Of a stretch of 64,000 nucleotides of DNA, positions 46,394 to 62,596 are shown in pieces. Under the pieces are notes generated by a model. It was given only the letters and a program-made list of their open reading frames with translations. It ran no database searches and was not told the origin of the DNA. The stretch is from positions 1,046,663-1,110,662 of the forward strand of contig CAVOGE010000007.1 of NCBI GenBank assembly GCA_963695195.1, in the 5' to 3' direction. The DNA comes from an uncultured Chloroflexia bacterium. GTDB taxonomy: Bacteria; Chloroflexota; Limnocylindria; QHBO01. The position numbers were made by a program, and so were the translations under genes. Every line of letters begins with the position of its first letter. The stretch's first letter is position 1.

Positions 46394-47500
46394 TTACTCG
46401 CCGCCCGGGGTGATCGCCACGGTTGCCTTCGTCCAGCCGGTGCCGGTCGCGTCGCTCAGCCCCTCGAGGGCCTTCGCGGCGAGATCGGTCCGGTACGAAG
46501 CGGCATCCGGGGCAGCGGTGATGATGCCGGCCTCGAGCGCGGTGTCCACGGTCTGCGACCAGAGGTCCGCGTCGAGCATGCCGATGCCGTCGGGCGACGG
46601 CCAGATCAGCGCGTTGATCTCGTTCATCATCCACTTCTGGTGGCCGGCGCCGAGCGTGCTGCCGTTGTCGACCACGAACTGCTCACACGCAGCGGCGTTG
46701 TCGCGGCAGTAGATCCAGCCCTTGAACGAGGCGCGCAGGAACTTGACCGCGACATCCTCGTTGTTGCCCTCGGCCAGCCAGGATGCACGCGCCCAGACGG
46801 CGTCCTGCAGCATGGCCGTGCCGACCTCGTTGTAGTCGATGACGTTGATGTCACTCGGCTGGAAGAGCTCGCCGGTATCGGGGTTCGTCGTCTCCAGCAG
46901 CTGGGCGTACTCGTTGTAGATCATCGCCTCGGCGACGTCGACGCAGTCGGTGTCGGCCGCCTCGCAGCCGTCGTAGGCGGCGAGCAGCTCGGCCATGCTG
47001 AAGCCCTGCGTCACCTGGGTGAAGTCCTCGCCCGCGACGAGGCCCTCCTTCAGGGCGGAGGCGATCACCTCCAGCTCGTTGCCGAAGCCCCAGGCCCCGA
47101 CCTTCTTGCCGGCGAAGTCAGCGACCGAGGTGATGTTGCTTGATTTCCAGGAGACCGACAGCGTGCCTGCTCGCTGGAAGACCTGCGCGATGTTCACCAG
47201 GTCCGAACCCGCGTCGCTCTCACGAGCCTGGAGCACCTTCGGCACCCAGGAGAGGTTGAATTCCGGTCCATTTGGGGCGGATCCGACCACCTGCGGTGCG
47301 ATGTCGGCGGCACCGGGGACGATCTCGACCTCGATCCCCTCGGCCTCGTAGTAGCCCAGTTCCTGGGCGGCGTAGTAGCCGGCGAACTGCGCCTGCGGGA
47401 ACCACTGCAGCTGCAGCCGTACCTTGGCTGGCGCCGAACATCCGGCGAGCACCACGGCGGCGGCGAGCATGGCCACCGTTCCGATGCGGAATACCCTCAT
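46394..47500 (-). CDS. NMT1/THI5-like ABC substrate-binding lipoprotein (pyrimidine-type)
   Basis: Lipobox LAGC, LQLQWFPQAQFAGYY, AMIYNEY; SD AGGAG; ATG 47500. Confidence 0.88.
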   Translation of the reverse strand: MRVFRIGTVAMLAAAVVLAGCSAPAKVRLQLQWFPQAQFAGYYAAQELGYYEAEGIEVEIVPGAADIAPQVVGSAPNGPEFNLSWVPKVLQARESDAGSDLVNIAQVFQRAGTLSVSWKSSNITSVADFAGKKVGAWGFGNELEVIASALKEGLVAGEDFTQVTQGFSMAELLAAYDGCEAADTDCVDVAEAMIYNEYAQLLETTNPDTGELFQPSDINVIDYNEVGTAMLQDAVWARASWLAEGNNEDVAVKFLRASFKGWIYCRDNAAACEQFVVDNGSTLGAGHQKWMMNEINALIWPSPDGIGMLDADLWSQTVDTALEAGIITAAPDAASYRTDLAAKALEGLSDATGTGWTKATVAITPGGE

Positions 47501-47613
47501 TGCGACTCCTCGACTGATGCATGGGCCCGTGGGCGGGCCGCCTCTCTCCGAACCCGGTGATTCTACGGGCGTCGCGTCGCGCCGGATAGAGGCAACTGCG
47601 CGGGCCGTCGCGC

Positions 47614-48411
47614 CTATGCCACCCGCTCGCCGCGTACCGATGGGTGCCACGGGATGAGCACCCGCTCTGCCCCCAGCACCACGAGGTACATGGCGATCCC
47701 CACCGCCGAGACGACCACGATGGCGGCCCAGGTCACCTCGAACGCGAGGGTGCTGGCGCTCTCCACCACGACCCGGCCAAGAGCCACGTTCAGCCCGCCG
47801 AAATACTCTCCGACTACCGCGCCGATCAGGCTCAGCGTCGTGCCGATCTTGAGGCCGGTGAGGAAGAACGGCAGCGCATTGGGCACCCGCACCTTGACCA
47901 GCACGGCCATCTCTCCGGCGGCGTAGGAGCGCATCAGTTCCAGTGACGACGCGCTGACCGAGGTGAGGCCGCGGAGGACGTTGATCATGATCGGGAAGAA
48001 GACGAGCGCCGCCGAGATGGCCATCTTGGAGTAGACGCTCTGCGATCCGAACCACTGGTTGGCGAGCGGCGCGAAGGCCACGATCGGGATGGCGTTCACC
48101 GCGATGCCCACCGGCAGCACGATGTCCCGTGCACTCGGGTAGCGGGCAACCGCGAAGGCCACCACCAGGCCGAGCAGCGCGCCGGCGATCAGGCCGCCAC
48201 CGGCCTCCTGGAGGGTCGCCTGCGCCGCTGGCAGGATCTGGTACCCGGTGGTCCAGTTCTCGCCAAGCGCCCGCGCGATGGAGGACGGCGCGGGCAGGAT
48301 GAAGGCACGGATCGAGAGGCCCCGGATGGTGGCCTCCCAGAGCGCGATGCCGCCCACGAACACCACGATCGCCGGCGCGTTGTGACGCAGCAGCGCGAGA
48401 GCGCGGTTCAC
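47614..48411 (-). CDS. ABC permease (SsuC/TauC-like)
   Basis: ILPAPS, IPIVAFAPL, FFPI, LIGAVVGEY. Confidence 0.9.
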   Translation of the reverse strand: MNRALALLRHNAPAIVVFVGGIALWEATIRGLSIRAFILPAPSSIARALGENWTTGYQILPAAQATLQEAGGGLIAGALLGLVVAFAVARYPSARDIVLPVGIAVNAIPIVAFAPLANQWFGSQSVYSKMAISAALVFFPIMINVLRGLTSVSASSLELMRSYAAGEMAVLVKVRVPNALPFFLTGLKIGTTLSLIGAVVGEYFGGLNVALGRVVVESASTLAFEVTWAAIVVVSAVGIAMYLVVLGAERVLIPWHPSVRGERVA

Positions 48412-49250
48412 CCGATCAGCCCCTCTGCCTCGGCTCGCTCAATCGAGGCGAGGGAAACGTCAGGCGCTCCGCTGCCCTCGCCGCGTCGCAGCGCCTCGCG
48501 GACCTCGGTCACCATCTCGAAGTAGCGCCGGCTCTCGCGCGTCTCGAGGCCACGCGGGCGCGGCAGGTCGACCTCAACGATCTGCGTGATCCGTCCCGGG
48601 CGGGCGCTCATCACCACCACGCGGCTCGACAGGAAGACCGCTTCGGGTATCGAGTGCGTAACGAACACGACCGTGATGCCGGTCTGCTCCCAGATGCGAA
48701 GCACCTCGGAGTTCATGCGCTCGCGGGTCATCTCGTCGAGCGCGCCGAACGGCTCGTCCATCAGCAGAATTGCCGGCGAGAAGGTGAGCGCCCGTGCGAT
48801 GGCAACCCGCTGCTGCATCCCGCCCGACAGCTGGTACGGGTAGTGCCGCGCGAAGTCGGGCAGCTCCACCAGCTCGAGCATCTCCCGAACGCGGGCGTCG
48901 CGCTCTGCTCGCTCCTGCCCGGTCAGCTCCAGCGGCAGTCGCACGTTCTCCTCGACGGTGCGCCAGTCGAAGAGGACCGGCGCCTGGAAGACCATCCCGT
49001 AGTCGCGATCGAGACGCGCCTGCGGCGCGGGCTTGCCGTTCACGCTGACCGACCCCGCGGTCGGTTGCGTCAGGTCGCCGATCAGCCGCAGCAGCGTCGA
49101 CTTCCCGCAGCCGGACGGACCGATCAGCGATACGAACTCGCCGCGTCGCAGATCGAGGTCGATCCCCGTCAGGGCGGTCATGGTCGCCCCGCCCGACAGC
49201 GCGAAGTCCTTCTCGACCCCGGCAAGGCTGACCACGGGCTGGTCGCTCAT
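48408..49250 (-). CDS. ABC ATP-binding protein (SsuB/TauB-like)
   Basis: GPSGCGKST, LSGGMQQR, LMDEPFGALD, FVTHS; start 49250 (SD AGGAG) or 49265. Confidence 0.93.
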   Translation of the reverse strand: MSDQPVVSLAGVEKDFALSGGATMTALTGIDLDLRRGEFVSLIGPSGCGKSTLLRLIGDLTQPTAGSVSVNGKPAPQARLDRDYGMVFQAPVLFDWRTVEENVRLPLELTGQERAERDARVREMLELVELPDFARHYPYQLSGGMQQRVAIARALTFSPAILLMDEPFGALDEMTRERMNSEVLRIWEQTGITVVFVTHSIPEAVFLSSRVVVMSARPGRITQIVEVDLPRPRGLETRESRRYFEMVTEVREALRRGEGSGAPDVSLASIERAEAEGLIG

Positions 49251-49261
49251 CTGCTCTCCTG

Positions 49262-50158
49262 TCATCCGGCTGAGGCCTCCGGCCGGCCGCGCAGGACACG
49301 CAGCTCGACCAGGCGCACGAGGCTGTAGAAGCTCACGCCCAGCAGTGCGGCGACGAAGATGGCGCTCCACAGCTTGGACGGATTGGTCACGTACTGCTGG
49401 TTGAACTCGATGATCGACCAGCCGAGGCCCCCCTGGATGGCGCCCGGTCCCTCCCCGATGATCGCGCCCACGATGCTGGCGGTTGCGGTGATCTTGAGGG
49501 CCGTGAACAGGTAGGGGAGCGAGGCGGGCAGCCGCAGCTTCCACAGGATGGTGCGTCGAGAAGCTGCGAAGGAGCGCATCAGCTCCAGCGCCCGGGGATC
49601 GGGCGAACGCAGGCCGCGGATCATGGCGATCGTCACCGGGAAGAAGGTCAGGTAGGTGGCGATGATCACCACGCTCATCACGTTGTTGCCGAAGAAGAAG
49701 ACGATCATCGGCGCCAGGGCCACGATGGGGATGGTCTGGCTGGCCACGACGTACGGGACGAAGGCACGCTCGAGCAGCTGCGAGTGCACAAATGCCGCCG
49801 CCAGCGAGATGCCGAGCAGGCCCCCCAGCACGAAGCCGATTGCCGCCTCGCGCCACGTGTAGAGCGCCTTGATCGACAGGTGGACGAAGAGGGACTGGTC
49901 AGCGTTGCGCCGGTAGGGCCCGATCATGGTGTCCACGATGTCCCACAGATGCGGGAGGCCCTGGTCGTTGAGGACGTTGAACTTCAGCGGGGGCCGCCAC
50001 TCCCAGCCGAAGTAGCGCCACGGGTCGCCGCCGATGAACTTGGCCGCCTCCCACGCGACCAGCACCCCGAGCAGGAAGAGCAGATAGATCCGCGCCCGCC
50101 CAAACCTCGATCGGCCGGGAGGGCCCGCGGCCGGAATGACCTCAGGCGATCGCCGCAT
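49262..50158 (-). CDS. ABC permease (SsuC/TauC-like)
   Basis: SQTIPIVALAP, LTFFPV, LPYLFTALK, IVGAIIGE; start uncertain. Confidence 0.88.
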   Translation of the reverse strand: MRRSPEVIPAAGPPGRSRFGRARIYLLFLLGVLVAWEAAKFIGGDPWRYFGWEWRPPLKFNVLNDQGLPHLWDIVDTMIGPYRRNADQSLFVHLSIKALYTWREAAIGFVLGGLLGISLAAAFVHSQLLERAFVPYVVASQTIPIVALAPMIVFFFGNNVMSVVIIATYLTFFPVTIAMIRGLRSPDPRALELMRSFAASRRTILWKLRLPASLPYLFTALKITATASIVGAIIGEGPGAIQGGLGWSIIEFNQQYVTNPSKLWSAIFVAALLGVSFYSLVRLVELRVLRGRPEASAG

Positions 50159-51473
50159 CGGTCGCGTCGAGGGCTCGGTCGATGATCGCGAACCCTTCGC
50201 GCAGCTGCTCCTCGGTGATGCACAGCGGCGGGTTGGTGAAGACCTGGTTCCAGTGCAGCATGGTGTACAGACCGTCCGCCTTCAGCCGCGCGTCGAGTGC
50301 CTGCATCTCCGGCGAGGTGCCGTTGAAGGGCGCCATCGGCTCCATCGTCTCGCGCGAGCGCACCAGCTCGAAGATGCCGAAGAGGCCGATGCTGCGGACC
50401 GTCCCCACGCTCGGGTGCCGGGCCTGGAGGCCGGCCAGCAGCTCCTTCATGACCGGATCGAGGCGCGCGGCGTTGCCGACCAGGTCGTCGTCGCGCAGCA
50501 CGTTGACGGCCGCGATCGCCGCAGCGCAGCTGATCGGGTGGGACGAGTAGGTGAGCCCGCCGAAGTAGACCCGCTCGTTGAAGTGCTCGGCGATCCTGGG
50601 GCTCATCGCCACCGCGCCGAGCGGCATGTATGAGCTGGTCAGCCCCTTGGCCATCGTCAACAGGTCGGGCACGACGTTCCAGTGATCCACCGCGAACCAG
50701 CGTCCGGTGCGGCCGAAGCCAGCCATCACCTCGTCGGCGATCATCACGATGCCGTGCCTGGTGCACAGCTCGCGGATCCCCTGGAGGTAGCCGTCGGGCG
50801 GGATCAAGATCCCGTTGGTGCCGGTGACCGTCTCCATGATGAAGGCGGCGATGGTGTGCGGCCCCTCGTACTGCATCACCTCTTCGATGTAGGCGAGGTG
50901 CTCCTCGACCGGCTCGGCCTCGCTGCGCGCCCAGCGCCATGGGTCGAGCACGCGGATGATCCCCGGGATGCCCGGCTCGTTGGCCCAGCGTCGCGGGTCG
51001 CCGGTGACACTGATCGCCCCGGCGGTCGCGCCATGGTACGAGCGGTGGTAGGCCATCACCTTCTGACGTCCGGTGGAGATGCGGGCCATGCGCAGGGCGT
51101 TCTCGTTGGCCTCGGCGCCGCCCAGCGTGAAGAAGAACCGATTCAGGTCGCCCGGCGTGACCTCGGCGAGGAGCTGTCCGAGCCGGCCGCGGACCTCGGT
51201 GGCGAACTGCGGAGCGGCGAAGGCCAGCTTGTGGGCCTGCTCGGCGATGGCATCGGCCACGCGCTTGTCGCCATGGCCGATGTTGACGCTCATCAGCTGT
51301 GAATTGAAGTCGATGTAGCGCTTGCCGTCGGGGTCCCAGAAGTGGATCCCCTCGGCGCGGTCAACAACGATCGGGTTGATCTTTGCCTGGGCCGACCAGG
51401 AGAAGAAGGTGTACTCGCGGTTGAGGCGCAGGATCTCGTCGGTGGTGAGCCGATCGGTGGAGGTGACGGTCAT
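50142..51473 (-). CDS. Class III aminotransferase (probable beta-alanine/omega-amino acid transaminase, PydD-like)
   Basis: FFTLGGAEANE, SYHGAT, IADEVMAGFGRTG, MAKGLT, GLTYSSHP; pyrimidine-catabolism context. Confidence 0.87.
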   Translation of the reverse strand: MTVTSTDRLTTDEILRLNREYTFFSWSAQAKINPIVVDRAEGIHFWDPDGKRYIDFNSQLMSVNIGHGDKRVADAIAEQAHKLAFAAPQFATEVRGRLGQLLAEVTPGDLNRFFFTLGGAEANENALRMARISTGRQKVMAYHRSYHGATAGAISVTGDPRRWANEPGIPGIIRVLDPWRWARSEAEPVEEHLAYIEEVMQYEGPHTIAAFIMETVTGTNGILIPPDGYLQGIRELCTRHGIVMIADEVMAGFGRTGRWFAVDHWNVVPDLLTMAKGLTSSYMPLGAVAMSPRIAEHFNERVYFGGLTYSSHPISCAAAIAAVNVLRDDDLVGNAARLDPVMKELLAGLQARHPSVGTVRSIGLFGIFELVRSRETMEPMAPFNGTSPEMQALDARLKADGLYTMLHWNQVFTNPPLCITEEQLREGFAIIDRALDATDAAIA

Positions 51474-51491
51474 CGGTACCTCGAAGGCGCA

Positions 51492-51524
51492 CGGCTTGTG
51501 GGGGACCGATTACACCACAAGCCG
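51492..51524. promoter_or_regulatory. Inverted repeat over the aminotransferase/ABC operon promoter (candidate operator)
   Basis: CGGCTTGTGG-N13-CCACAAGCCG perfect 10-bp arms; the spacer contains TGTAAT on the minus strand. Confidence 0.4.
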
Positions 51525-51552
51525 CGTGTCGCAGAGGGGTAGCATCGGTCCG

Positions 51553-52155
51553 GTGAACCTGCTGGAGCGCGAATCGCTTCTCGGAAGGCTGCACACCGTG
51601 CTCTCGGAGAGTCGCCGCGGGCAGGGGAGGCTGGCGCTGATCGGCGGCGAGGCGGGGATCGGCAAGACGAGCCTGGTCGAGCAGCTCTGTGCTGACAGCG
51701 CCGGCCTGGTCCAGGTGCTGTGGGGGTCGTGCGACCCGGTCATGCCAGCCCGGCCGTTCGCACCGCTTCGCGATATCGCAGATGAGATCGGCGGCCCGCT
51801 GCGTGCGGCGCTGGATGCGGCTGATCGCGACCGGATCCTGGAGGCGTTCCTGGCAATGCTGCGACGACCCGCGGGACCGGTCCGCCTGATCGTCCTGGAC
51901 GATATGCATTGGGCCGACGAGGCCACGCTTGACCTGCTCAGGATCGTCGGACGGCGCGTGCGCAGCCTCCGCGTGCTCGTCATCGCGACCTACCGCGACG
52001 ACGAAGTGGGCAGCCGACACCCGCTCCGCCTGGCGCTCGGCGACATTCCGCCGGGCACGCTGGTCGAGCTTCGGGTGCCACCCCTCTCGCCCGCCGCCGT
52101 CGCCGAGCTGGCTCGAGGGGTGGAGATTGATCCGGCGGAGCTTCACCGCAACTGA
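51553..52155 (+). pseudogene. Truncated AAA-ATPase of a MalT/LAL (LuxR-type) regulator
   Basis: LLERES, GEAGIGKT, LDDMHWADEATLDLL. Stops at ELHRN*, where the family continues TGGNP; no TPR or HTH follows. Confidence 0.72.
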
Positions 52156-52199
52156 CCGGGGTCTTCCGCCCCTAGCGCCGATTCGGCCAATCGCACACG

Positions 52200-52230
52200 A
52201 GCCGGGCTGGGCCGTCCAGCCCGGCTTCTT
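52200..52230. terminator. Hairpin terminator between convergent genes
   Basis: AGCCGGGCTGG-GCCGT-CCAGCCCGGCT followed by TCTT. Confidence 0.65.
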
Positions 52231-52234
52231 GGTG

Positions 52235-53631
52235 TCAGCCAGAAGGTCGCGTTCGCGCGCGCAGGATGGCATCGGCGGTGCGGTCGATATCGGCCTCGGT
52301 GGTCGACCAGTTGCTGACGCTGATGCGCATGGCCCCCATCCCGTGCCAGGTGGTGGTGCCCATCCAGGCCTCACCGCCAGCCTGCACGCGTGCCACCACT
52401 TCGCGGGTGAACGCATCGGCATCGCCACCGTCGCCAGGCGTGAAGCGCACGAGCACCTGGTTCAGCACGACGTCATTCAGGATCTCGACCCCGTCAGCAG
52501 CGTCGAGCCGCTCCGCCATTCGTCGGGCCAGCTGGGAACAGCGCTCGACCATCTCGCGCACCCCGCTCCGGCCGAGGGAGCGGAGGGCCGCGTAGACGAT
52601 GAAGCCGCGCGCCCGGCGCGAGGAGTCAAGCACGTACTCCCAGTTGTCGCGGTGGGCGGCGTCCTGCATCAGGTACGCGGCTGTCGCCGACATCGCCGCG
52701 CGGTGTGCCTCGCGTCCCCGAACAGCGACGAACCCGCAGTCGTAGCCCGAGTTGAGCCACTTGTGCGCGTCGGTGGCCCACGAATCGGCGCGCTCGACGC
52801 CGGCGACGAGGTGGCGCAGCTCCGGACTTGCTGCAGCCCAGAGTCCAAACGCGCCATCGACATGGAGCCACGCGTTGGGGTGGCCGACAAGCGCGTCCGC
52901 CACCGCATTCGCCGGATCGAAGGCTCCGGTGTTCACGTTCCCCGCCTGGATGCAGACGATCGTCGGCATATCCGTGTCGAGCACCTCTGGCAACGCGTCC
53001 GCACGCATCCGCCCCTGCTCGTCGGTAGGGATCCTTGTCACCCGCTCACGACCGAGTCCGAGGTATTGCAGCCCGGCAAGCAGCGTGGAATGCACCTCAT
53101 CTCCCACGATGACCCGGATCTCCGGTGCGCCGTACAGGCCGCGCGCCTCCACGTCCCAGCCGACCCGCTCGAGCACGGTATGGCGACCGACCGCGAGGCC
53201 CACGGTGCTGCCCAACGCCGCCCCGGTGGGGAAGCCGAAACTCGCATCGGCGGGCAAGCCGAGCAGTTCGAGCATCCACGGTCCAGCCACCAGCTCGGCG
53301 GCCGCGGCCGCCGGCGACAGCGGGTGGAGGTTGGCCGCCTGCGACCACGCGCCCGTCAGCCAGTCGGCTCCCGCCGCGGCTGGCAGCGACCCCCCGATCA
53401 CGAAGCCAAAGTATCGCGGTCCCGCCGATGCCACCAGTCCCGGGTCGAAGTCGCGCGCCATCTCCTCGACGACCACCAAGGGGTCCTCCCCCCTTCAGGT
53501 AGCGGGCCGCCCAGCCGGGCCACCAGGCCGGCGTCATCGGTCTGTGCGCCGACATGGCGCTCGGGCAGCCCCAGGACGAATTCGATTCCCAGTTCCGCCG
53601 CCCGGCGCATGGCCCGTTCGCGCGATTCCAT
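52235..53631 (-). CDS. PLP-dependent group II decarboxylase, with a -1 frameshift near codon 47
   Basis: GPRYFGFVIGG, WLHVDGAFGLW, WATDAHKWL, MRISV. N-terminus MESRERAMRRAAELG...PLPEGG is in another frame; one more base in the C6 run 53488-53493 gives PEGGEDPLVVVEEM. Confidence 0.85.
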
Positions 53632-53633
53632 CG

Positions 53634-54236
53634 TCAGCCCGCGGGCGTCGCAGCGGCTGCGTGCAATGGCTCGCCGACCAGCTCGGCCAGCCGCTCGGCG
53701 ATCGCCCACCAGTCGAACGACTCGGTGACGTCGGACGCCCGCACCGTAAGCAGCCGCTCCCCGGGGATGTAGGTCGGGATGATCCGGTCCAGGATCGTCT
53801 CGATCTCGTCACGGAACGCGTCGTTGGTGGAGCGCACCCCGTCGGCCAGCAGCGCCACATCGGGCAGCAGGCGCACGAACAGGTCGTAGGTGCCGGCCCA
53901 CGAGCGGATGAGCGGCTCGACCTCGAACGGATCGGCGCCATCGGTCACCCGCAGGAAATACGCGAAGTTGTCGACCACGGACCGATCGGTCACGAGCACC
54001 TCGGCCTGATTTCGCAGCTCCAGCTCCTGCTGAATCTGCGCCATCAGCACCCAGAGCTGCGCCTCGGGCGTGGCCCCCTCATTGCGGCCCAGCGGGTTGA
54101 AGCGGATCACCTCGCGACCCACCTCGACGCTCCGCCCGGCCCGCCCGATCGTGCTGGCAAAGGCGTGCACCGCGTTCGTCTTGCGCACCGAATGCGAGCC
54201 GATGAAGGCGATCTTTGCGGCGTTCTTCCATGACAT
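53634..54236 (-). CDS. NadR/Ttd14-like P-loop protein (AAA_28)
   Basis: KIAFIGSHSVRKT (variant Walker A), EVGRE, VTDRSVVDNFAY, DGVRS. Confidence 0.7.
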   Translation of the reverse strand: MSWKNAAKIAFIGSHSVRKTNAVHAFASTIGRAGRSVEVGREVIRFNPLGRNEGATPEAQLWVLMAQIQQELELRNQAEVLVTDRSVVDNFAYFLRVTDGADPFEVEPLIRSWAGTYDLFVRLLPDVALLADGVRSTNDAFRDEIETILDRIIPTYIPGERLLTVRASDVTESFDWWAIAERLAELVGEPLHAAAATPAG

Positions 54237-54312
54237 CGGTCAGCGCATTGTGCACGTCGGGGGACTATGCGATAAGGCTCCGCCGGACTAGCCTGCAGCA
54301 AGGAGGTTTGCG

Positions 54313-54702: not shown

Positions 54703-54712
54703 CACGCCGGTG

Positions 54713-55540
54713 ATGGTCCGGCTGTGGGGAACGCGCGGATCGGTCGCAAGTCCAGGCCCCGACACGATCCGCTACGGCGGCAACACGGCCTGCGTCGAGG
54801 TCCGCACCGACGACGCGCTCCTCGTGCTCGACGCCGGGACCGGCATCCGTCGGCTCGGGACGGCGCTGCGCGAGCACCAAGGCCGAATCGACCTGTTGCT
54901 GACCCATCTGCACCTCGACCACCTGCAGGGGATCGGCTTCTTTGAGCCGTGCTTCCGGGCGGACATCGAGTTGCACATCTGGGGTCCGCCATCCACGACC
55001 ATGAATCTTCGGGAACGCCTGTCGCGATACCTGTCGCCGCCCCTCTTCCCGGTGCGCCTGCGCGATCTCGGCTCTCGAGTCTCGCTGCACGACGTGCCTG
55101 CCGAGCCCTTTACCGTCGGTTCGCTGACGATCAGCGCGGATGCGGTCATCCACCCCGACCCGACGGTCGGCTACCGCATCACCGGCGGGGGCCGGACGCT
55201 CGCCTACCTGCCGGATCACGAGCCCGCGCTGGGGGCCCCATCCTTCCCGCTGTCGCCGGGCTGGACCTCGGGGCACGGCGTGGCGGCTGGCGCTGACCTG
55301 CTGATCCACGATGCCCAGTACACCGCCGCCGAATATCCCGATCGGATCGGCTGGGGACACAGCTCGGTGGAGCACGCATGGGCCTTCGCCGTGCAGGCGG
55401 AGGCTCGCCGCCTCGTCACCTTCCACCACGATCCGAGCCATGCGGACGATCAGCTCGATCAACTGGTGGCCGACCTCCAGGCCCGCGATGGGCCGGAGGT
55501 GGTCGGTGGCGCAGAGGGGCTGGAGTTCACCCTCAACTGA
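54713..55540 (+). CDS. MBL-fold metallohydrolase (RNase Z / cNMP phosphodiesterase-like)
   Basis: WGTRGS, RYGGNTAC, LDAGTG, THLHLDHLQG, PDHE, IHDAQY, GWGHS, FHHDP. Confidence 0.88.
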   Translation: MVRLWGTRGSVASPGPDTIRYGGNTACVEVRTDDALLVLDAGTGIRRLGTALREHQGRIDLLLTHLHLDHLQGIGFFEPCFRADIELHIWGPPSTTMNLRERLSRYLSPPLFPVRLRDLGSRVSLHDVPAEPFTVGSLTISADAVIHPDPTVGYRITGGGRTLAYLPDHEPALGAPSFPLSPGWTSGHGVAAGADLLIHDAQYTAAEYPDRIGWGHSSVEHAWAFAVQAEARRLVTFHHDPSHADDQLDQLVADLQARDGPEVVGGAEGLEFTLN

Positions 55541-55630
55541 CCTTCGCCGCTGGCCCGCTGAGCGGTGTGATGCGCTGCTGCAGGTGTAATGTATCGGCTC
55601 CCTGACCCGACCGAACCCAGGAGGAAACGA

Positions 55631-56479
55631 ATGGCGCGAATCATCCGCGCGGCCCTGTTGCAGGCCGACTGGACCGGCGACAAGGAGTCGATGATCTCCA
55701 AGCATGAGAAGTACGCGCGCGAGGCAGCCAAGCAGGGCGCCAAGGTGATGTGCTTCCAGGAGCTCTTCTACGGTCCGTACTTCTGCCAGGTGCAGGACCC
55801 GCAGTACTTCTCCTACACCGAACACATCCCGGACGGTCCCACGACCAAGCGCATGCAGGAACTGGCGCGCGAGACCGGGATGGTGTTGATCGTACCGATG
55901 TACGAGGAGGACTCGGACACGGCCGGGATCTACTACAACACCGCCGCGGTGATCGACGCCGATGGCTCCTACCTGGGCAAGTACCGCAAGACCCACATCC
56001 CGCACGTCAAGGGCTTCTGGGAGAAGTTCTACTTCCGCCCCGGCAACACCGGCTACCCGGTCTTCGACACCGCCGTCGGCAAGGTGGGCGTCTACATCTG
56101 CTACGACCGCCATTTCCCCGAGGGCGCGCGGGCGCTGGGGCTCAACGGCGCCGAGCTGGTCTTCATTCCTTCGGCCACGTCGCGCGGGTTGAGCGAGTAC
56201 CTGTGGCGCGTCGAGCAGGTCTCGCATGCGCTCGCCAATGGGTACTACGTGGGGACGATCAACCGGGTCGGTATCGAGCCCCTTGGTGAAGACGACTTCT
56301 ACGGGCAGTCCTACTTCGTGGATCCCCGCGGCCAGTTCGTCGGCGAGGTGGGGGACGCCTACAAGGAGGAGCTGCTGGTCCGCGACCTCGATATGGACAC
56401 GATCACCGAGGTTCGGCAGCTCTGGCAGTTCTACCGTGATCGGCGTCCCGATGCCTACGCTGACCTGGTGCGCCCGTAG
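55631..56479 (+). CDS. pydC: Beta-ureidopropionase (nitrilase / CN-hydrolase family)
   Basis: Triad FQELF, KYRKTHIP, ICYDRHFPE; GFWEKFYFRPGN; SD GGAGG. Confidence 0.85.
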   Translation: MARIIRAALLQADWTGDKESMISKHEKYAREAAKQGAKVMCFQELFYGPYFCQVQDPQYFSYTEHIPDGPTTKRMQELARETGMVLIVPMYEEDSDTAGIYYNTAAVIDADGSYLGKYRKTHIPHVKGFWEKFYFRPGNTGYPVFDTAVGKVGVYICYDRHFPEGARALGLNGAELVFIPSATSRGLSEYLWRVEQVSHALANGYYVGTINRVGIEPLGEDDFYGQSYFVDPRGQFVGEVGDAYKEELLVRDLDMDTITEVRQLWQFYRDRRPDAYADLVRP

Positions 56480-56480
56480 G

Positions 56481-56691
56481 GTGGGCAGATACGGGCGCCC
56501 GTTACTACGTGACGTAGTTCAACAGCGCATCTGCCCGCATCAAGCACCGAATAGCACGTGAACTGCGTCATGCCACTACCTCTCGTAGTACGGCGACACG
56601 CGGAGGGCTCCGTACGCGCTGATGTACTACGTCACGTGGTGCGGCGACACGCGCCGAGCTCTCCACGTGCCGATGAACCACGTCACGTGGT
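56481..56691. repeat. REP-like palindromic repeat cluster (15-bp palindrome x4; 51-bp period)
   Basis: ACTACGTGACGTAGT 56504, ACTACCTCTCGTAGT 56575, ACTACGTCACGTGGT 56626, ACCACGTCACGTGGT 56677. The first copy caps a long hairpin 56481-56538. Confidence 0.75.
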
Positions 56692-56716
56692 AAGCCGTGG
56701 AGGACAGGGGACGTAG

Positions 56717-57709
56717 ATGGACTTCGGATTCACGCTCAAGCCCGATAACGACCTCGGACGCACCGTCGAGCTGACGAAGCGTGCCGAGGGAAATGGCTTC
56801 ACGTACGGCTGGATCTTCGACAGCCACGTGCTGTGGCGCGAGCCGTACGTCCCGCTGACGCTGATGGCCCAGGCCACGACGGCCATGCGCCTCGGCACCT
56901 GTGTCACGAATCCCGCCACGCGCGAGCCGAGCGTCACCGCCTCGACCCTGGCGGTGCTCGACGAGCTGAGCGGCGGGCGGATGGACCTGGGGATCGGTCG
57001 CGGAGACAGCGCGCGCAGGGTGCTCGGCAAGCCGCCGACCACCATGAAGACGCTCGAGGAGGCGATCGGCGTCATCCGCGACCTGGTCGAGGGCCGCACC
57101 GTCAACTTCGAGGGCACCGACCTGGTCCTCCCGTGGACCGGCAAGTGGAAGCTCCCCGTCTGGGTCGCCGGCTACGGACCGATGGCGCTGGCCATGACCG
57201 GCCGCATCGCCGACGGACTGATCCTCCAGCTGGCCGATCCCGACCTGATTCGGTTCTTCGTCGCGCAGGTCCGCGAGGCAGAGGCAGGCGCCGGCCGCTC
57301 ACCGGGCAGCGTTCGCGTGCAGTCGGCGGCCGCCGCGCACGTGGGCCCCCGCGAGGTCGGGCGTGAGCGGACCCGCTGGTTCCCCGCCCTGGTCAGCAAC
57401 CACGTGGTCGACCTCGTGAACAGGTACCCGCGCGAGCAGCTGCCCGAGGCGCTGACCGGCTACGTCACTGACCGCACGGGGTACGACTACCTCCACCACG
57501 CCGAGGTCGGCTCGAGCAACGCGGCCTTCGTCGGCGACGAGGTGATCGACCGGTTCTGCTTGCTGGGCGAACCCGACGAGCATGTCGCCAAGCTCCACGA
57601 GCTCGCCGACGCGGGCGTGGACCAGTTCAACTTCTACCTGATGAACGGCGACGAGGAAGACCAGCTGGACCGATACGGCCGCGACGTCATTCCCGCCATG
57701 AACCGATAG
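56717..57709 (+). CDS. LLM-class, Mer-like putative F420-dependent oxidoreductase (TIGR03842-like)
   Basis: MDFGFTL, WIFDSHVLWREP, GTCVTNPATR, GIGRGDSA, VAGYGP, ILQLADP, YDYLHH, DRFCLLG. Confidence 0.85.
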   Translation: MDFGFTLKPDNDLGRTVELTKRAEGNGFTYGWIFDSHVLWREPYVPLTLMAQATTAMRLGTCVTNPATREPSVTASTLAVLDELSGGRMDLGIGRGDSARRVLGKPPTTMKTLEEAIGVIRDLVEGRTVNFEGTDLVLPWTGKWKLPVWVAGYGPMALAMTGRIADGLILQLADPDLIRFFVAQVREAEAGAGRSPGSVRVQSAAAAHVGPREVGRERTRWFPALVSNHVVDLVNRYPREQLPEALTGYVTDRTGYDYLHHAEVGSSNAAFVGDEVIDRFCLLGEPDEHVAKLHELADAGVDQFNFYLMNGDEEDQLDRYGRDVIPAMNR

Positions 57710-57715
57710 GCGCGC

Positions 57716-57868
57716 GTGTCGCTGCGATTCGCCATCGGCGTGCGGGCGTTTATCGTCGTGGTGCTCGGTATCCTGTACTTCACCAGCGGCGACTCGTTCT
57801 ACCTGGCCCTCGCCGCGATCGCGGTGCTCGGTGGGGCGTGGACCATCTACAGAGCGATGCGGAGTTGA
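57716..57868 (+). CDS. 50-aa two-helix membrane protein (below the ORF-track cutoff)
   Basis: GTG..TGA gives MSLRFAIGVRAFIVVVLGILYFTSGDSFYLALAAIAVLGGAWTIYRAMRS; high GC3; exactly fills the gap between flanking genes. Confidence 0.65.
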   Translation: MSLRFAIGVRAFIVVVLGILYFTSGDSFYLALAAIAVLGGAWTIYRAMRS

Positions 57869-57872
57869 ACCC

Positions 57873-59058
57873 ATGACCTCGACACGAACCCGTCGGATCG
57901 ACCGAATCGGGGAGATCCATCGCGCCGTTCATGGCCTTCTTTACGGGGCCGTTCGCGAAGCTCAACGCCAATCCGGAAGTCGCCAACTTCGCGGTCGGTA
58001 ACCCGCAGGACTTCCCGATGCCCGAGTACGTCAGCGCGCTCGCCACGCACCTGGAGCCGCGCCGGCGTGACTGGTTCGCCTACAAGGACAGCGAGCCGAA
58101 GTCGCGCATCGCCGTCGCCCGCGGACTCAGCGCGCGGACCGGCATGAAGTGGGATCCGGCCGACGTGGCGATGACCAACGGGGGCTTCGCGGCGCTGGCG
58201 GTTGCCATGCGTGCGCTGGTCGAGCCCGGCGACGAGGTGATCTTCCTCTCGCCGCCGTGGTTCTTCTACGAGTTCATGGTCCTCGCCGCCGATGGCGTTC
58301 CGGTGCGCCTCCACCTGGCGCCGCCCGCCTTCGAGCCCGACATGGCGGAGATCGCCGCGGCCATCACCCCGCGCACCCGGGCGATCATCTTCAACTCGCC
58401 GCACAACCCGAGCGGGCGGGTGTACCCGCTCGAGACGCTCCAGGCGCTGGCAACGACCCTGACCGATGCCTCCGAACGCATCGGTCATCCGATCTTCCTG
58501 ATCTCCGACGAGCCCTACAACCGGATCCTGTTCGACGGCATCGCCTTCCATACGCCGGCCGAGGTGTACCCGCACACGGTGATCACCTATTCCTACGGGA
58601 AGCAGCTGCTGGCCCCCGGTCAGCGCATCGGCTACCTGACTGTGCCGCCGACCATGCCGGACCGCGAGGCATTCCGCGAGAGCATCTTCGTGGCGCAGTT
58701 CGCCACCGGCTACGCGTTCCCCAACGCGCTGCTGCAGCACGCCATCGAGGATCTCGAGAAGCTCTCCATTGACATCCCTGCCATGCAGGCTCGCCGGGAC
58801 CGGATGGTCAGCGGGTTGCGGGAGATCGGCTACGAGACGACGGTACCGGAGGGGACCTTCTACATCATGGCCCGCGCCCCGATCGCCGACGACGTCGCCT
58901 TCTGCGAGCTGCTGGGCAGGCATCGCGTCCTCGTCCTGCCCGGCACGGTGGTCGAGGTGCCCGGCTGGTTCCGGATCAGCCTGACCGCAACCGACGAGAT
59001 GGTGGAGCGGGGACTCCCCGGCTTCGCCGCCGCGTGGGCCGAGGCATCGGCCCCATGA
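57873..59058 (+). CDS. Class I/II (aspartate-type) aminotransferase; probable +1 indel near the 5' end
   Basis: NSPHNPSG, ISDEPY, YSYGKQLLAPGQRIGY, WFRISL. ATG 57873 is out of frame by one G in the G4 run at 57909-57912; in-frame ATG at 57931. Confidence 0.87.
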
Positions 59059-59474
59059 GGCCGGCCTTCGTCGCCGGCTTCGGACCGATCGTGAAGGACG
59101 GTGCCGCGAGCCGCGCCTTCTGGGCCGATGGACTCGGGATCAAGCTCGAGGAGTCATCACCCGGCTATTGGACCAACGACGATCTCGAAGGTGTCAGGGC
59201 CTTCGCCCTGTGGCCCTTGTCGCAGGCGGCCGAGTCGTGCTTCGGGACCGATGCATGGCCGACGGATCTCCCCGAGCCCCAGGCCTGGCTTGAGTTCGAC
59301 GTCGCGTCCGCCGACGACGTCGCGCCTGCTGCCGCCGAGATGGCGGAGCGCGGCTATCGGATCCTGGTCGATGCCAAGCTCGAGCCGTGGGGCCAGACGG
59401 TCAGCCACCTGCTCAGCCCCGAGGGGATCCTGGTCGGCATCGTCTACACCCCGTGGATGCACGAGAAGGCCTAG
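59055..59474 (+). CDS. VOC/glyoxalase family protein
   Basis: SRAFWADGLG, WLEFDV, EPWGQTV...SPEGILVG; ATGA overlap. Confidence 0.82.
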   Translation: MRPAFVAGFGPIVKDGAASRAFWADGLGIKLEESSPGYWTNDDLEGVRAFALWPLSQAAESCFGTDAWPTDLPEPQAWLEFDVASADDVAPAAAEMAERGYRILVDAKLEPWGQTVSHLLSPEGILVGIVYTPWMHEKA

Positions 59475-60115
59475 CCGGCGTACACCAACGACAGGATCAT
59501 CAGCCCCTGACCCAGGTGGTAGGGGACGCGGGTCAGCAGCCTGCCCTGGCGGATGGGCGTCACGAAGCGATTCCAGCCGAGCACGCCGTCCGACGCGTAC
59601 AGGAGCACCGCCCCGACTCGCGCGAGGATGAGGTCGGACTGCCCGGCGAACACGACCATCGCTGAGATGGTCGCGAGATAGGCCGCCACCGCGACGCCGA
59701 GTGCCGCGCCCCGTTTCCTGGCGGCGCCGAGCACGATCGGGATGCCCATGAACAGGCCGGCCAGCGCAACGAACACGAGGCCGGCGGCGACCGATTCTCC
59801 GGTGCCCTGGACCTGCAGCAGTCCCCCGATGTACGCCAGGTGAGCGAGCAGGAACGCCCCCAACCCGACCGCGAACCAGCGTGGCGGTGCGAGCAGCGCG
59901 ACGTCACCCGCTGCGGAAAGGGCGAGGGCGGCCACGAAGAAGGTGCGCTGCTCCGTGTTGACCGGCGCGACCATCACCGCCGCGGCAAGGAGCAGCAGGA
60001 TCACCGCCGGCTTGGTCACGAGCCCCACGCGCCGCCGGTCGCCCACGAGCGCGACCCAGTCCACCACGGCGATCAGGCCGGCCGCCGCCATCAGCCCTGC
60101 TGCGGTGGATGTCAT
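59471..60115 (-). CDS. Lysoplasmalogenase (YhhN/TMEM86 family)
   Basis: TKP, SAAGDVALL, GLGAFLLAHLAYI, YASDGVLGWNRF, YHLGQ. Confidence 0.87.
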   Translation of the reverse strand: MTSTAAGLMAAAGLIAVVDWVALVGDRRRVGLVTKPAVILLLLAAAVMVAPVNTEQRTFFVAALALSAAGDVALLAPPRWFAVGLGAFLLAHLAYIGGLLQVQGTGESVAAGLVFVALAGLFMGIPIVLGAARKRGAALGVAVAAYLATISAMVVFAGQSDLILARVGAVLLYASDGVLGWNRFVTPIRQGRLLTRVPYHLGQGLMILSLVYAG

Positions 60116-60153
60116 GCCGCGAATCGTAGCCGCGCCCGCCAGATGTGCACCGG
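60111..60153 (-). promoter_or_regulatory. Leaderless promoter, copy 1 of a 43-bp direct repeat
   Basis: Minus strand CCGGTGCACATCTG...TACGAT-N7-ATG; 37/43 identical to 60827-60869. Confidence 0.65.
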
Positions 60154-60159
60154 TCGCCG

Positions 60160-60831
60160 TCAAGCCTCAACAGGAAGGGGCGCCACCGAGTCAAGGAAGG
60201 CGGCGAACTCCGTGCCCGCTTCCCAACCGGCCGAGACCAGCTCGAGGTAGCGTCGCGAGGCGGCGACGGCCGCGAGGGCCTCATCGGTCAGGCTCCCGTC
60301 GCGCCAGGCGCTGTCGCGGGGATCGGTCGGGAAGCCGTGCTCGTCGGCCGATGCGCCCCGTGGGCCCGAGCGCGCAGGACCCCAGTGCTTCATGCGCAGG
60401 ATCCGCGCGCCGTCTCGATCCGTGTGGGCCGTCGAGTAGGAGTCCTGCAGGCAATGGAGCAGCCGGCCGAAGGTCGCCCAGCGCCGCGGGCCGTCCGGCA
60501 TCGCGAGGGCGCGCGAGTGGCAGTCGGCCATGAACGCGCGCATCTCTGCAACGCCACGCCGGGTCGTCGTCGAGGGCCAGGCGCGCAGTGCGTGGCGCCG
60601 CTGTGCGAACGGCAGTGCGGCGACCAGCAATCCGCGCAGCCCAAGATCCGGGGCTCGCACGCCGCGGATCAGGGCTCGCTGCTGGTCATCGGTCACTTGC
60701 AAGCCGGCCCAGGCGGCGCGGGTGATCGCCTCGTGTCCTTCTTCGCCGTTCAGCAGCGGAACGCGGACGGTCCAGGCGAGGGCGATGAGCAGTGGCAGAT
60801 GCTCGGCCCCCCACGCCGCGATGTCGGTCAT
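60160..60831 (-). CDS. Hypothetical protein with zinc phospholipase C / P1 nuclease / Het-C-like motifs
   Basis: GHEAIT, GVRAPD, RRHALR, FGRLLHCLQDSYSTAH. Confidence 0.6.
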   Translation of the reverse strand: MTDIAAWGAEHLPLLIALAWTVRVPLLNGEEGHEAITRAAWAGLQVTDDQQRALIRGVRAPDLGLRGLLVAALPFAQRRHALRAWPSTTTRRGVAEMRAFMADCHSRALAMPDGPRRWATFGRLLHCLQDSYSTAHTDRDGARILRMKHWGPARSGPRGASADEHGFPTDPRDSAWRDGSLTDEALAAVAASRRYLELVSAGWEAGTEFAAFLDSVAPLPVEA

Positions 60832-60869
60832 GCCTCGCATCGTAGCGACGCCTGTCAGATGTGCACCGG
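60827..60869 (-). promoter_or_regulatory. Leaderless promoter, copy 2 of the 43-bp direct repeat
   Basis: Same layout as copy 1, exactly 716 bp away, ungapped. Confidence 0.65.
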
Positions 60870-61017
60870 GGGACCGTAACGGGAGTCACGGTGGGTCCGC
60901 GTTCACCGCGCAGCGCAGATTCGTGCAGCGTCCGTGCTCAGCCCGGGGGCAGCCGGGCCCGAGTTCCGGCTGATTCCGCCCGACTGCTCGCCTAAGCGTC
61001 CCCCGGTGCAAGTCTGA
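60855..61017. repeat. MITE/REP-like element bounded by 20-bp inverted repeats
   Basis: TCAGATGTGCACCGGGGGAC (60855-60874) vs reverse complement of 60998-61017, TCAGACTTGCACCGGGGGAC; 18/20; no target duplication seen. Confidence 0.55.
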
Positions 61018-61024
61018 GCGGATT

Positions 61025-61100
61025 CCGCCGCGAGCCGCCCGCCGCGAGCCGCCCGCCGCGAGTCGCCCGCCGCGAGTCGCGCCCGCCGCGAGTCGCGCCC
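61025..61100. repeat. 14-bp minisatellite, 5 copies
   Basis: CCGCCGCGAG at 61025, 61039, 61053, 61067, 61083. Confidence 0.8.
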
Positions 61101-61204
61101 GCGCCGCTGTGGCAACCCATTCACGCACCTCCGTCGCGGCGCTACCATGGCGACGCTCTCGCGCCACGCACCGACTCGCTCCCCACAAGCCACCGGAGGA
61201 ACCG

Positions 61205-62596
61205 ATGCGCACCCTGATCAAGAACGGCACGATCATCAACGCCGACGCCACGACCCGGGCGGATGTCCTGGTGGACGGCGAGACGATCGCGCTCATCGGC
61301 TCGGACCTGGCGGCCGAGGCAGGAGCCACCGCCGACCGCACCATCGACGCCACCGGCAAGTGGGTGATCCCCGGCGCCATCGACGTGCACACGCACATGG
61401 AGCTGCCGTTCGGCGGGACCGCGGCCAAGGACACGTTCGAGACCGGGACGCGCGCCGCGGCATTCGGGGGCACGACGACCATCATCGACTTCGCCGTCCA
61501 GTCGCGTGGGACGGCACTTCGCGACGGGCTCGACGCCTGGCACGCCAAGGCCGATGGCAACGCCTGCATCGACTACGGCTTCCACATGATCATCAGCGAC
61601 GTCCGCGACGATGTTCTGACCGAGATGGACACGCTCGTCGACGAAGGCGTCACGACCTTCAAGCTGTTCACCGCCTACCCCGGCGTCTTCCTCTCCGATG
61701 ACGGGGCGATCTTCCGGGCGATGCAGCAGACCGCGGGGAACGGCGGGCTGATCATGATGCACGCCGAAAACGGCCTCGCCATCGACGTCGTCGCCGGGCA
61801 GACCTTTGGCGCGGGCAACACCGATCCCTACTACCACGGAACATCCCGCTCGCCGGTGCTGGAGGGCGAGGCCACCAACCGGGTGATTCGGCTGGCCGAG
61901 GTCGCCGGAGCGCCGGTCTACATCGTCCACCTCTCGGCGCGCGAGGCCCTCAACGAGGTGCGCCGGGCCCGCGATGAGGGGCTGCCCGTCTTCGCCGAGA
62001 CCTGCCCCCAGTACCTTTTCCTCTCGCTCGACGACATGGGCAACGGCTTCAACGGCGCCAAGTTCGTCTGCTCTCCGCCCCTGCGCCCGGCGGACCACCA
62101 GGAAGACCTGTGGCTCGGGCTCCTGAAGGACGACCTGCAAGTCGTCTCGACTGACCATTGCCCATTCGATTTCCACGGCCAGAAGGACCTGGGGGTCGGC
62201 GACTTCCGCAAGGTCCCGAACGGCCTGCCCGGCGTCGAGGACCGCGTGAACCTGATGCACTCGGGCGGAGTGGTCACCGGGCGACTGACGCCGAACCGAT
62301 GGGTGGAGGTCATCTCGGCGGCACCCGCCCGCATGTTCGGACTGCCGCAGAAGGGCGCCGTGGGGGTCGGCCTGGATGCCGACCTGGTCGTCTACGACCC
62401 GACGCGTCGCCACACCATCAGCGCCTCGACCCATCACATGAACGTGGACTACAGCTGCTACGAGGGGATGGAGGTCACCGGCGGGGCCGATCTCGTCCTA
62501 TCGCGCGGCAAGATCGTGGTGGATGGCGAGGAGTGGCTCGGCGCCCGGGGCGACGGCCGCTTCCTGAAGCGTCAACCAAGCCCATTCCTGAAGTAG
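61205..62596 (+). CDS. hydA: Dihydropyrimidinase (D-hydantoinase)
   Basis: PGAIDVHTHM, GGTTTIIDF, TFKLFTAYPG, MHAENG, AETCPQYL, FVCSPPLR, STDHCPF, PNGLPGVE; SD GGAGG. Confidence 0.94.
   Translation: MRTLIKNGTIINADATTRADVLVDGETIALIGSDLAAEAGATADRTIDATGKWVIPGAIDVHTHMELPFGGTAAKDTFETGTRAAAFGGTTTIIDFAVQSRGTALRDGLDAWHAKADGNACIDYGFHMIISDVRDDVLTEMDTLVDEGVTTFKLFTAYPGVFLSDDGAIFRAMQQTAGNGGLIMMHAENGLAIDVVAGQTFGAGNTDPYYHGTSRSPVLEGEATNRVIRLAEVAGAPVYIVHLSAREALNEVRRARDEGLPVFAETCPQYLFLSLDDMGNGFNGAKFVCSPPLRPADHQEDLWLGLLKDDLQVVSTDHCPFDFHGQKDLGVGDFRKVPNGLPGVEDRVNLMHSGGVVTGRLTPNRWVEVISAAPARMFGLPQKGAVGVGLDADLVVYDPTRRHTISASTHHMNVDYSCYEGMEVTGGADLVLSRGKIVVDGEEWLGARGDGRFLKRQPSPFLK

Follow-up and report, generated by a model that had tools for sequence, protein, structure and literature searches.

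How does a bacterium that carries the ring-opening and later enzymes of reductive pyrimidine catabolism reduce the uracil or thymine ring, if it has no recognizable dihydropyrimidine dehydrogenase (DPD)? The question is raised by a 64,000-nucleotide stretch of DNA (the window) from an uncultured Chloroflexia bacterium of soil or freshwater: contig CAVOGE010000007.1 of assembly GCA_963695195.1, positions 1,046,663 to 1,110,662, given below as C7:1046663-1110662 of genome G000. The genome is 2.11 Mb long and 98% complete, and the region of the window has a G+C content of ~69%. A preliminary description, made from the sequence of the window, proposed that the first step is taken over by an oxidoreductase of the luciferase-like monooxygenase (LLM) class, encoded at 56717-57709 and referred to below as the LLM. 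Our comparisons of sequence, predicted structure and gene neighborhood indicate that this TIGR03842-family protein is probably an F420H2-dependent uracil/thymine reductase, non-homologous to the usual enzyme PreT/PreA (PreTA, PydA). The genes on which the argument turns are the following, in window coordinates.

46394 to ~47450 (5' end approximate), minus strand: NMT1/THI5-like substrate-binding protein (PF09084 NMT1, 94.5 bits)
47614-48411, minus strand: permease 2 of the NMT1-type ATP-binding cassette (ABC) importer (BPD_transp_1, 69.6 bits)
48408 to ~49250, minus strand: ABC ATPase of the NMT1-type importer (ABC_tran, 120 bits; closest NCBIfam models are NitT/TauT-type ATPases)
49262-50158, minus strand: permease 1 of the NMT1-type importer (BPD_transp_1, 94.4 bits)
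50142-51473, minus strand: class III aminotransferase (NF004718, 561.2 bits, cut-off 472)
55589 or 55631 to 56479, plus strand: carbon-nitrogen (CN) hydrolase, beta-ureidopropionase-like, PydC role (Pfam CN_hydrolase, 224.7 bits)
56717-57709, plus strand: TIGR03842-family LLM-class oxidoreductase, 330 aa, the candidate reductase (TIGR03842, 424.0 bits, cut-off 295.45)
61205-62596, plus strand: dihydropyrimidinase / D-hydantoinase, HydA, PydB role (TIGR02033, 557.6 bits, cut-off 393.25)

Scans with hidden Markov models (HMMs) recovered the whole gene list of the preliminary description (NMT1-type importer, class III aminotransferase, beta-ureidopropionase-like gene, dihydropyrimidinase and LLM), each gene lying at or near the place it had been given. 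The class III aminotransferase, permease, ABC ATPase, permease and NMT1-type binding protein follow one another in a minus-strand operon. The 553-aa open reading frame (ORF) of the binding protein is over-extended, with the NMT1 domain at residues 222-453. The LLM had been placed directly downstream of pydC; it is indeed downstream, but it starts 237 bp past the end of the CN-hydrolase gene rather than abutting it.

The family assignment of the LLM held up well. Its TIGR03842 match, well over the cut-off, covers residues 2-328 of 330 and profile positions 1-329 of 329, which makes it a member, and a six-frame search of the genome (423.6 bits) found it to be the single copy over that cut-off. 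Pfam Bac_luciferase (PF00296) gave 212 bits. The protein fell below both models of Mer, the F420-dependent methylene-tetrahydromethanopterin reductase (NF002619, 157.7 bits against 276; TIGR03555, 143.8 against 348.7), and so is not a Mer. It had no PF01180 or Fer4 match in the Pfam scan and so does not belong with PreA/PydA. RutA (TIGR03612, cut-off 498) was not among the 25 best of 27 families, the lowest of which scored 25.9 bits. When solved chains were searched by sequence, the nearest was Mer (129 bits, full length), followed by fHMAD, Fgd and Adf; the eleven closest were all F420 enzymes, and luciferases that use flavin mononucleotide (FMN) reached 33 bits at most. An AlphaFold2 model built on a 43-row alignment (pLDDT 95.0, pTM 0.93) gave Mer-F420 complexes as its top Foldseek matches (TM 0.82-0.84), then Fgd and Adf. 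Fold and nearest relatives place the LLM in the F420-dependent branch of the luciferase-like superfamily. TIGR03842 is a large family, with at least 8000 close homologs and 400 cluster representatives at E up to 1e-30; close homologs of the LLM are labelled Chloroflexota or Candidatus Limnocylindria at source. Seven proteins of the genome, this one counted, exceed the cut-offs of F420-type LLM families.

Mer is the closest characterized relative of the LLM, at 26-30% identity in whole-length Foldseek alignments. Residues of jMer, as given in the available part of the report 10.1101/2023.09.18.558202, were mapped onto the LLM through a HMMER alignment. Three elements of jMer have aligned counterparts in the LLM: the region of the cis-peptide, an Asp after beta4 and a carboxamide after beta6. 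The jMer cis-peptide Gly61-Val62 aligns with C62-V63 of the LLM in VTNP, a match of alignment position, and VTNP is invariant or nearly so across the TIGR03842 family. Asp96 of jMer aligns with D97, which is invariant in one of our alignments (A1) and nearly so in another (A2), and the beta6 carboxamide aligns with Q171. Because the mapped jMer residues are conserved except for Glu6, the LLM looks like a protein that keeps the F420 scaffold and differs from Mer in substrate chemistry. By analogy with Mer, in which Asp96 contacts the pyrimidine ring of the pterin, D97 could bind the uracil ring. Beyond its scores on the two Mer models, the LLM differs from Mer in its bacterial host and in its flanks, which hold pyrimidine-catabolism rather than C1-metabolism genes.

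The usual first enzyme was not found. The best match of the PreA model in the genome was a ferredoxin-like stretch of 32.5 bits, against a cut-off of 335, and the sole gene of the DHO_dh family (PF01180) encodes the quinone-dependent PyrD at C7:573135. The earlier statement that the window holds no DPD thus stands, and our profile searches found none elsewhere in the genome. Four GltD-like Fer4_20 matches were considered as PreT candidates and rejected: they have no PreA partner, and none lies near the DHO_dh-family gene at C7:573135. One of them is the NADPH-dependent glutamate synthase GltA (TIGR01316, over cut-off), and the other three best match models of GltD-like NAD(P)-binding proteins, below cut-offs.

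Evidence for the role of the LLM also comes from its company in other genomes. Related loci were collected by a pattern scan with one genome per species, and we compared the best 80 of at least 598 confirmed relatives (at least 600 stretches matched); 44 come from Chloroflexota and 36 from other phyla, mostly Acidobacteriota. Neighbors were counted with tblastn using the proteins of the window (at least 60% coverage, E < 1e-20, within 10 kb of the LLM), and those loci whose sequence runs at least 5 kb beyond the LLM in each direction, 41 in number, were treated as a full-flank subset. HydA was near the LLM in 60 of the 80 loci and in 37 of the 41 with full flanks, in 30 of these within 1 kb. 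The corresponding figures for the CN-hydrolase are 54/80 and 31/41, and all 31 of those full-flank loci had both enzymes. Homologs of the class III aminotransferase (20/80; 16/41), the ABC ATPase (17/80) and the NMT1 binding protein (12/80) were also found there. We estimate that, in a genome of 2-5 Mb, chance would bring one single-copy gene to within 10 kb of another at a frequency of about 1% or less, and the co-location of the LLM with the genes of the module far exceeds this. The preliminary description had looked to co-location with hydA and pydC as a check on its proposal, and on this point the proposal is strongly supported across both Chloroflexota and Acidobacteriota.

We also surveyed 201 Chloroflexota genomes, each at least 80% complete, with E-value limits of 1e-90 for TIGR02033 and 1e-60 for PreA and with CofH counted over its cut-off. 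The tallies take in the unpublished genomes G131, G038 and G168, and no conclusion rests on those three. TIGR03842 was found in 31 genomes and TIGR02033 in 83, including all 31 that carry the LLM. PreA was found in five, two of them LLM-positive (G065, and G074 below cut-off). In the three that are LLM-negative, PreA stands beside the dihydropyrimidinase: it abuts HydA in G187 and G072, and in G044 just PreT lies between them. The G187 locus reads HydA-PreA-PreT and has a uracil-type permease, and that of G072 reads HydA-PreA-permease-CN-hydrolase-class III aminotransferase. The CN-hydrolase and aminotransferase of G072 are 60% and 45% identical to the proteins of the window; G072 has this module with PreA in the slot that the LLM otherwise fills. 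Sixteen hydantoinase loci sampled from genomes with neither LLM nor PreA had other contexts. Some of these hydantoinases (L114-L123) sit with OTCase, PALP, an SsnA-like amidohydrolase, Xdh and AllG/AllH, a uric-acid or purine-type setting that agrees with the clusters of reductive uric-acid and oxamate type in the available part of PMC12507026. The remaining loci had neighborhoods free of catabolic genes.

Genes for making F420 lie close to the module. The genes cofD (307 bits), cofC (156 bits) and cofE (251 bits) lie together in an operon (C7:1116633-1118952) that follows the LLM at a distance of 12.3 kb. This CofE is a short form without the nitroreductase domain. A second LLM, TIGR03560-like (216 bits, below cut-off), precedes cofD-cofC-cofE, and the stretch C7:1115155-1118952 (L012:7156-10953) lies ~4.5-8.3 kb past the window end. 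A CarH-like regulator follows at L012:15208-16119. In the phylum sample, cofD was found in 127 genomes: 31 of the 31 that are LLM-positive versus 96 of the 170 that are LLM-negative. In 12 of the 31, cofD and the LLM share a contig and are no more than 15 kb apart; two of these genomes are from a different family. A second set comprised 50 further LLM-bearing genomes reached via their loci (36 non-Chloroflexota, 14 Chloroflexota; the unpublished G207 included); cofD was found in 42 of these metagenome-assembled genomes. The sole candidate for an F420 reducer in genome G000 is an Fgd-family protein (321 bits on TIGR03557, cut-off 210).

Across two phyla the LLM keeps company with the two ring-opening enzymes; it stands in the place of PreA, it is confined in the phylum sample to cofD-positive genomes, and our searches of this genome found no other candidate for the step. 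These points together lead to the role of first-step reductase, and those checks suggested by the preliminary description that could be run came out for it or nearly so. From gene identities, synteny, the missing PreA, cofCDE and the F420-type fold we infer the substrate, the use of the cofactor and the direction of the reaction, and we regard the proposal of an F420H2-dependent enzyme filling the gap as supported and likely to be correct. The NMT1-type ABC system would import the pyrimidine. F420H2 bound in the barrel would reduce uracil or thymine by hydride transfer to C6, with protonation of C5 by an acid of the active site, giving the 5,6-dihydropyrimidine. The dihydropyrimidinase would then open the ring, the CN-hydrolase would release beta-alanine or beta-aminoisobutyrate with NH3 and CO2, and the class III aminotransferase would take off the last nitrogen. 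Since no FO synthase was found, F420 would need to be built from scavenged FO, whose uptake is assumed, through CofC, CofD and CofE; the Fgd-family dehydrogenase of the genome would probably return it to F420H2.

As a hydride donor F420H2 is obligate, and its potential is near that of NAD(P)H. PreT/PreA and the ferredoxin-dependent PydA variants of DHO_dh type share with the LLM the proposed reaction, the position in the pathway and the place beside dihydropyrimidinase. The proteins themselves are not homologous: PreA is an FMN protein of DHO_dh fold with 4Fe-4S clusters, paired with the GltD-like PreT and using NAD(P)H, whereas the LLM is a single 330-aa barrel without an Fe-S motif, whose presumed hydride donor is F420H2. 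Two systems likened to the LLM by description bear on the chemistry. In the available part of PMC10714638, SSGG-03002/NpsU, a putative F420/FMN oxidoreductase, is genetically required for reduction of the uracil-ring C5=C6 bond in mureidomycins; it tailors a nucleoside-peptide antibiotic, and no in-vitro activity was obtained. As far as the accessible text of PMC12507026 goes, a putative F420 LLM (PF00296) termed 'yanthine reductase' stands in for a DHO_dh-type or YgfK/UacX reductase in uric-acid clusters of Chloroflexota. That system is a purine pathway worked out by bioinformatics, with SsnA, HyuA, YgeW, YgeY and YgeX, and the window cluster is unlike it in carrying two enzymes of pyrimidine breakdown, beta-ureidopropionase and an aminotransferase. 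By analogy, these precedents make F420-dependent reduction of a uracil ring plausible.

The partner enzymes leave some room for a different task. The class III aminotransferase is likely, from its sequence, to be a beta-alanine / beta-aminoisobutyrate transaminase in the PydD role. The CN-hydrolase is less clear-cut: its best NCBIfam match was aguB (268 bits, under the cut-off of 410), and its nearest solved chains were N-carbamoylputrescine amidohydrolase (212 bits) and then Drosophila and human beta-ureidopropionase (187 and 169 bits). The genome has a second TIGR02033-type hydantoinase (C7:1779185-1780546, 428 bits), which we rejected as a partner of the LLM; its neighbors, Xdh and urate oxidase among them, mark an oxidative purine locus. 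This locus (C7:1769751-1782831, L108) also holds an amidohydrolase, three xanthine-dehydrogenase subunits, malate synthase, a KamA-type aminomutase and another F420-type LLM, and the second hydantoinase probably acts as an allantoinase.

The alternative that survives best, though we think it unlikely, keeps the LLM in this module and gives it another redox step or substrate. It could act on malonate or methylmalonate semialdehyde, reducing or oxidizing it by way of F420 in a PydE- or MmsA-like role, or it could reduce another N-heterocycle, such as a substituted pyrimidine or a hydantoin precursor, to a product that the hydantoinase and the carbamoylase would go on to open. The alcohol and sugar dehydrogenases among its structural neighbors (Adf, Fgd and fHMAD) speak for such a reading, but a downstream role would leave nothing to start the pathway in a genome where no DHO_dh-type ring reductase was found. 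The neighbor counts point the same way: the tie of the LLM to HydA (37/41) and to the CN-hydrolase (31/41) is stronger than to the aminotransferase (16/41), which argues for an early step. Several further features speak for this alternative. TIGR02033 enzymes take hydantoins besides dihydropyrimidines and occur in the uric-acid-type clusters of LLM-negative Chloroflexota (OTCase, PALP, Xdh, AllG/H), the CN-hydrolase is slightly nearer to N-carbamoylputrescine amidohydrolase than to beta-ureidopropionase, and a pyrimidine is no more than the presumed substrate of the NMT1 importer. Against this, the PreA cluster of G072 has the CN-hydrolase and the aminotransferase and no LLM, as expected if a module has one or the other.

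A weaker alternative starts from RutA, which resembles the LLM in fold and in its first-step attack on uracil in a catabolic pathway, proposed for the LLM; RutA cleaves the ring with FMNH2 and O2 and works with RutB-F, whereas the partners of the LLM need a reduced, intact ring. It is very improbable that the LLM is an FMN monooxygenase or other non-F420 enzyme (RutA-like or unrelated), with a place among the pyrimidine genes that reflects no reductase role and with dihydropyrimidines coming from outside or from an unrecognized reductase: most of the superfamily are FMN monooxygenases, RutA is an LLM acting on uracil, no FO synthase was found in the genome and F420 use by TIGR03842 rests on profiling, but no FMN-type LLM model came near its cut-off, RutA was outside the 25 best families, FMN luciferases reached at most 33 bits versus 129 for Mer in the PDB search, all 31 LLM-positive genomes have cofD, the partner enzymes are not RutB-F and the synteny is kept across two phyla.

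Several observations weigh against an F420H2-dependent uracil/thymine reductase, among them the supply of the cofactor. The preliminary description made its proposal depend on F420 genes in the genome; cofC, cofD, cofE and an Fgd-family enzyme are there, but FO synthase and Fno are not among the genes found. No match to cofG or cofH (FO synthase) was detected in the genome at E up to 0.001. The 13 genomes searched from the family to which the window belongs (G000 counted) all came out without CofH over cut-off; among the 201 Chloroflexota genomes 24 had it, and among the 31 LLM-positive ones 2. In the second set CofH was over cut-off in 27 of 50 genomes and in none of the 14 from Chloroflexota. 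The Fgd-family protein also scored 344 bits on the FMN-type model TIGR03885, under its cut-off of 399. As a wider pattern, 103 of the 127 cofD-positive Chloroflexota genomes were without CofH over cut-off, which suggests widespread FO scavenging or an unrecognized FO synthase.

The distribution of PreA is a further caveat. PreTA was not found in the genome, and PreA occurred in 1 of the 50 further LLM-bearing genomes (G244, whose LLM has no HydA nearby), but the predicted anti-correlation between the LLM and preTA was not demonstrated across the Chloroflexota sample, and could not be, because PreA is rare in the phylum (5/201) whatever the LLM status. PreA-like genes are present in the LLM-bearing genomes G065, G074 and G244. 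The PreA matches of two of these (G065:C8:33596-34792 and G244:C1:3360212-3361399) lie in open frames of ~900 aa, away from the hydantoinase, which suggests fused PreT-PreA proteins of the animal DPD type.

The remaining difficulties concern the protein and its locus. The catalytic Glu6 of jMer, in the available account of that enzyme, corresponds to Thr6 in the LLM, for which we could not assign a proton donor. In the window, 3.5 kb of sequence with unrelated genes on both strands separates the LLM from the dihydropyrimidinase, and in four of the 41 full-flank loci (L053, L056, L070 and L078) neither HydA nor the CN-hydrolase is near the LLM. A hydantoinase tree of 75 rows (quick IQ-TREE; L071 and L079 dropped for length or stop codons, L125 re-cut by hand) had open deep forks, with PreA-linked rows on long branches; because the deep forks are open, the tree is silent on whether LLM-linked and PreA-linked hydantoinases form one orthologous group. 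No RNA data set was listed for 55500-59500 of the window. We neither know of nor found any TIGR03842 member that has been tested biochemically or genetically. Our literature search, which lay outside subscription journals and bioRxiv supplements, found no paper giving TIGR03842 this function. The nitrogen-regulated hydantoinase genes of M. smegmatis are not tied to a TIGR03842 gene in the available parts of PMC3662644 and PMC13718301, and these reports were not used. With all this taken into account, we still lean, if a little less firmly than for the reaction itself, toward TIGR03842 being a new, non-homologous class of F420H2-dependent dihydropyrimidine dehydrogenase; the pathway would in this Chloroflexota family run on F420 made from FO scavenged from other organisms.

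Other genes lie among those of the module. They are listed with, where counted, the number of the 80 related loci that have a homolog within 10 kb of the LLM.

51322-52155, plus strand: AAA_16 ATPase ORF, short at 277 aa, adjoining the decarboxylase below; 0 loci
52235-53479, minus strand: pyridoxal-phosphate (PLP) decarboxylase resembling diaminobutyrate and aspartate-1-decarboxylases (PanP); 4 loci
~54716-55540, plus strand: metallo-beta-lactamase (MBL)-fold protein; 1 locus
57716-57868, plus strand: 50-codon ORF for a strongly hydrophobic peptide, between the LLM and the class I/II aminotransferase
57931-59058, plus strand: class I/II aminotransferase; 3 loci
59034-59474, plus strand: glyoxalase-fold protein; 5 loci
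59471-60163, minus strand: YhhN; 0 loci (an unassigned ORF follows, before the dihydropyrimidinase)

The MBL-fold, PLP decarboxylase, class I/II aminotransferase, glyoxalase and YhhN genes interrupt the cluster, and with homologs near the LLM in just 0-5 of the 80 loci they make it looser than the preliminary description implied. The PLP decarboxylase, with a homolog near the LLM in 4 of the 80 loci, may have a link to beta-alanine. AAA_16 domains usually head large regulators. The peptide of the 50-codon ORF likely has two membrane spans.

A repeat sits between the CN-hydrolase and the LLM. It resembles a miniature inverted-repeat transposable element, is ~150-190 bp long and is bounded by inverted 19-mers (TACCACGTSACGTAGTTCA); the copy in the window lies at 56502-56693 (C7:1103164-1103355), with further copies at C7:675297-675460, C7:1116263-1116420 and C7:1151672-1151866. 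Its core palindrome, ACNACGTSACGTNGT, occurs nine times in the genome, always inside these four places. Two of them are the spacers that precede the LLM and cofD; a third is upstream of glpX, and the fourth follows an acetyl-CoA-synthetase-like gene. The 80 related loci all lack the palindrome. A search of 13 further genomes of the family, drawn from as many other genera, gave just single palindromes with different variable bases, in two of them, so that the four-copy repeat is strain-specific. We rejected the palindromes before the LLM as operators shared with hydA or the aminotransferase; none occurs upstream of those genes. Rfam returned a single match for the repeat, mir-592, at 18.9 bits against a gathering score of 67. 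The repeat may be mobile DNA, a regulatory site or an RNA.

This window adds four things to the picture of the family: an FO-synthase gap that is family-wide (0/13), the cofDCE genes near the module, the G072 counterpart with PreA in place of the LLM and the strain-specific repeat before the LLM. If the LLM is the first-step reductase, the large, highly conserved and so far unassigned TIGR03842 family would gain a function, and a gap in pyrimidine catabolism would be filled for many uncultured soil bacteria. Reduction of a nucleobase C=C bond would join the known reactions of F420, and the persistence of cofCDE in bacteria without an FO synthase would be explained in part. F420 itself would gain a core catabolic job, the recovery of nitrogen and carbon from uracil and thymine, in the Chloroflexota and Acidobacteriota of soil and freshwater.

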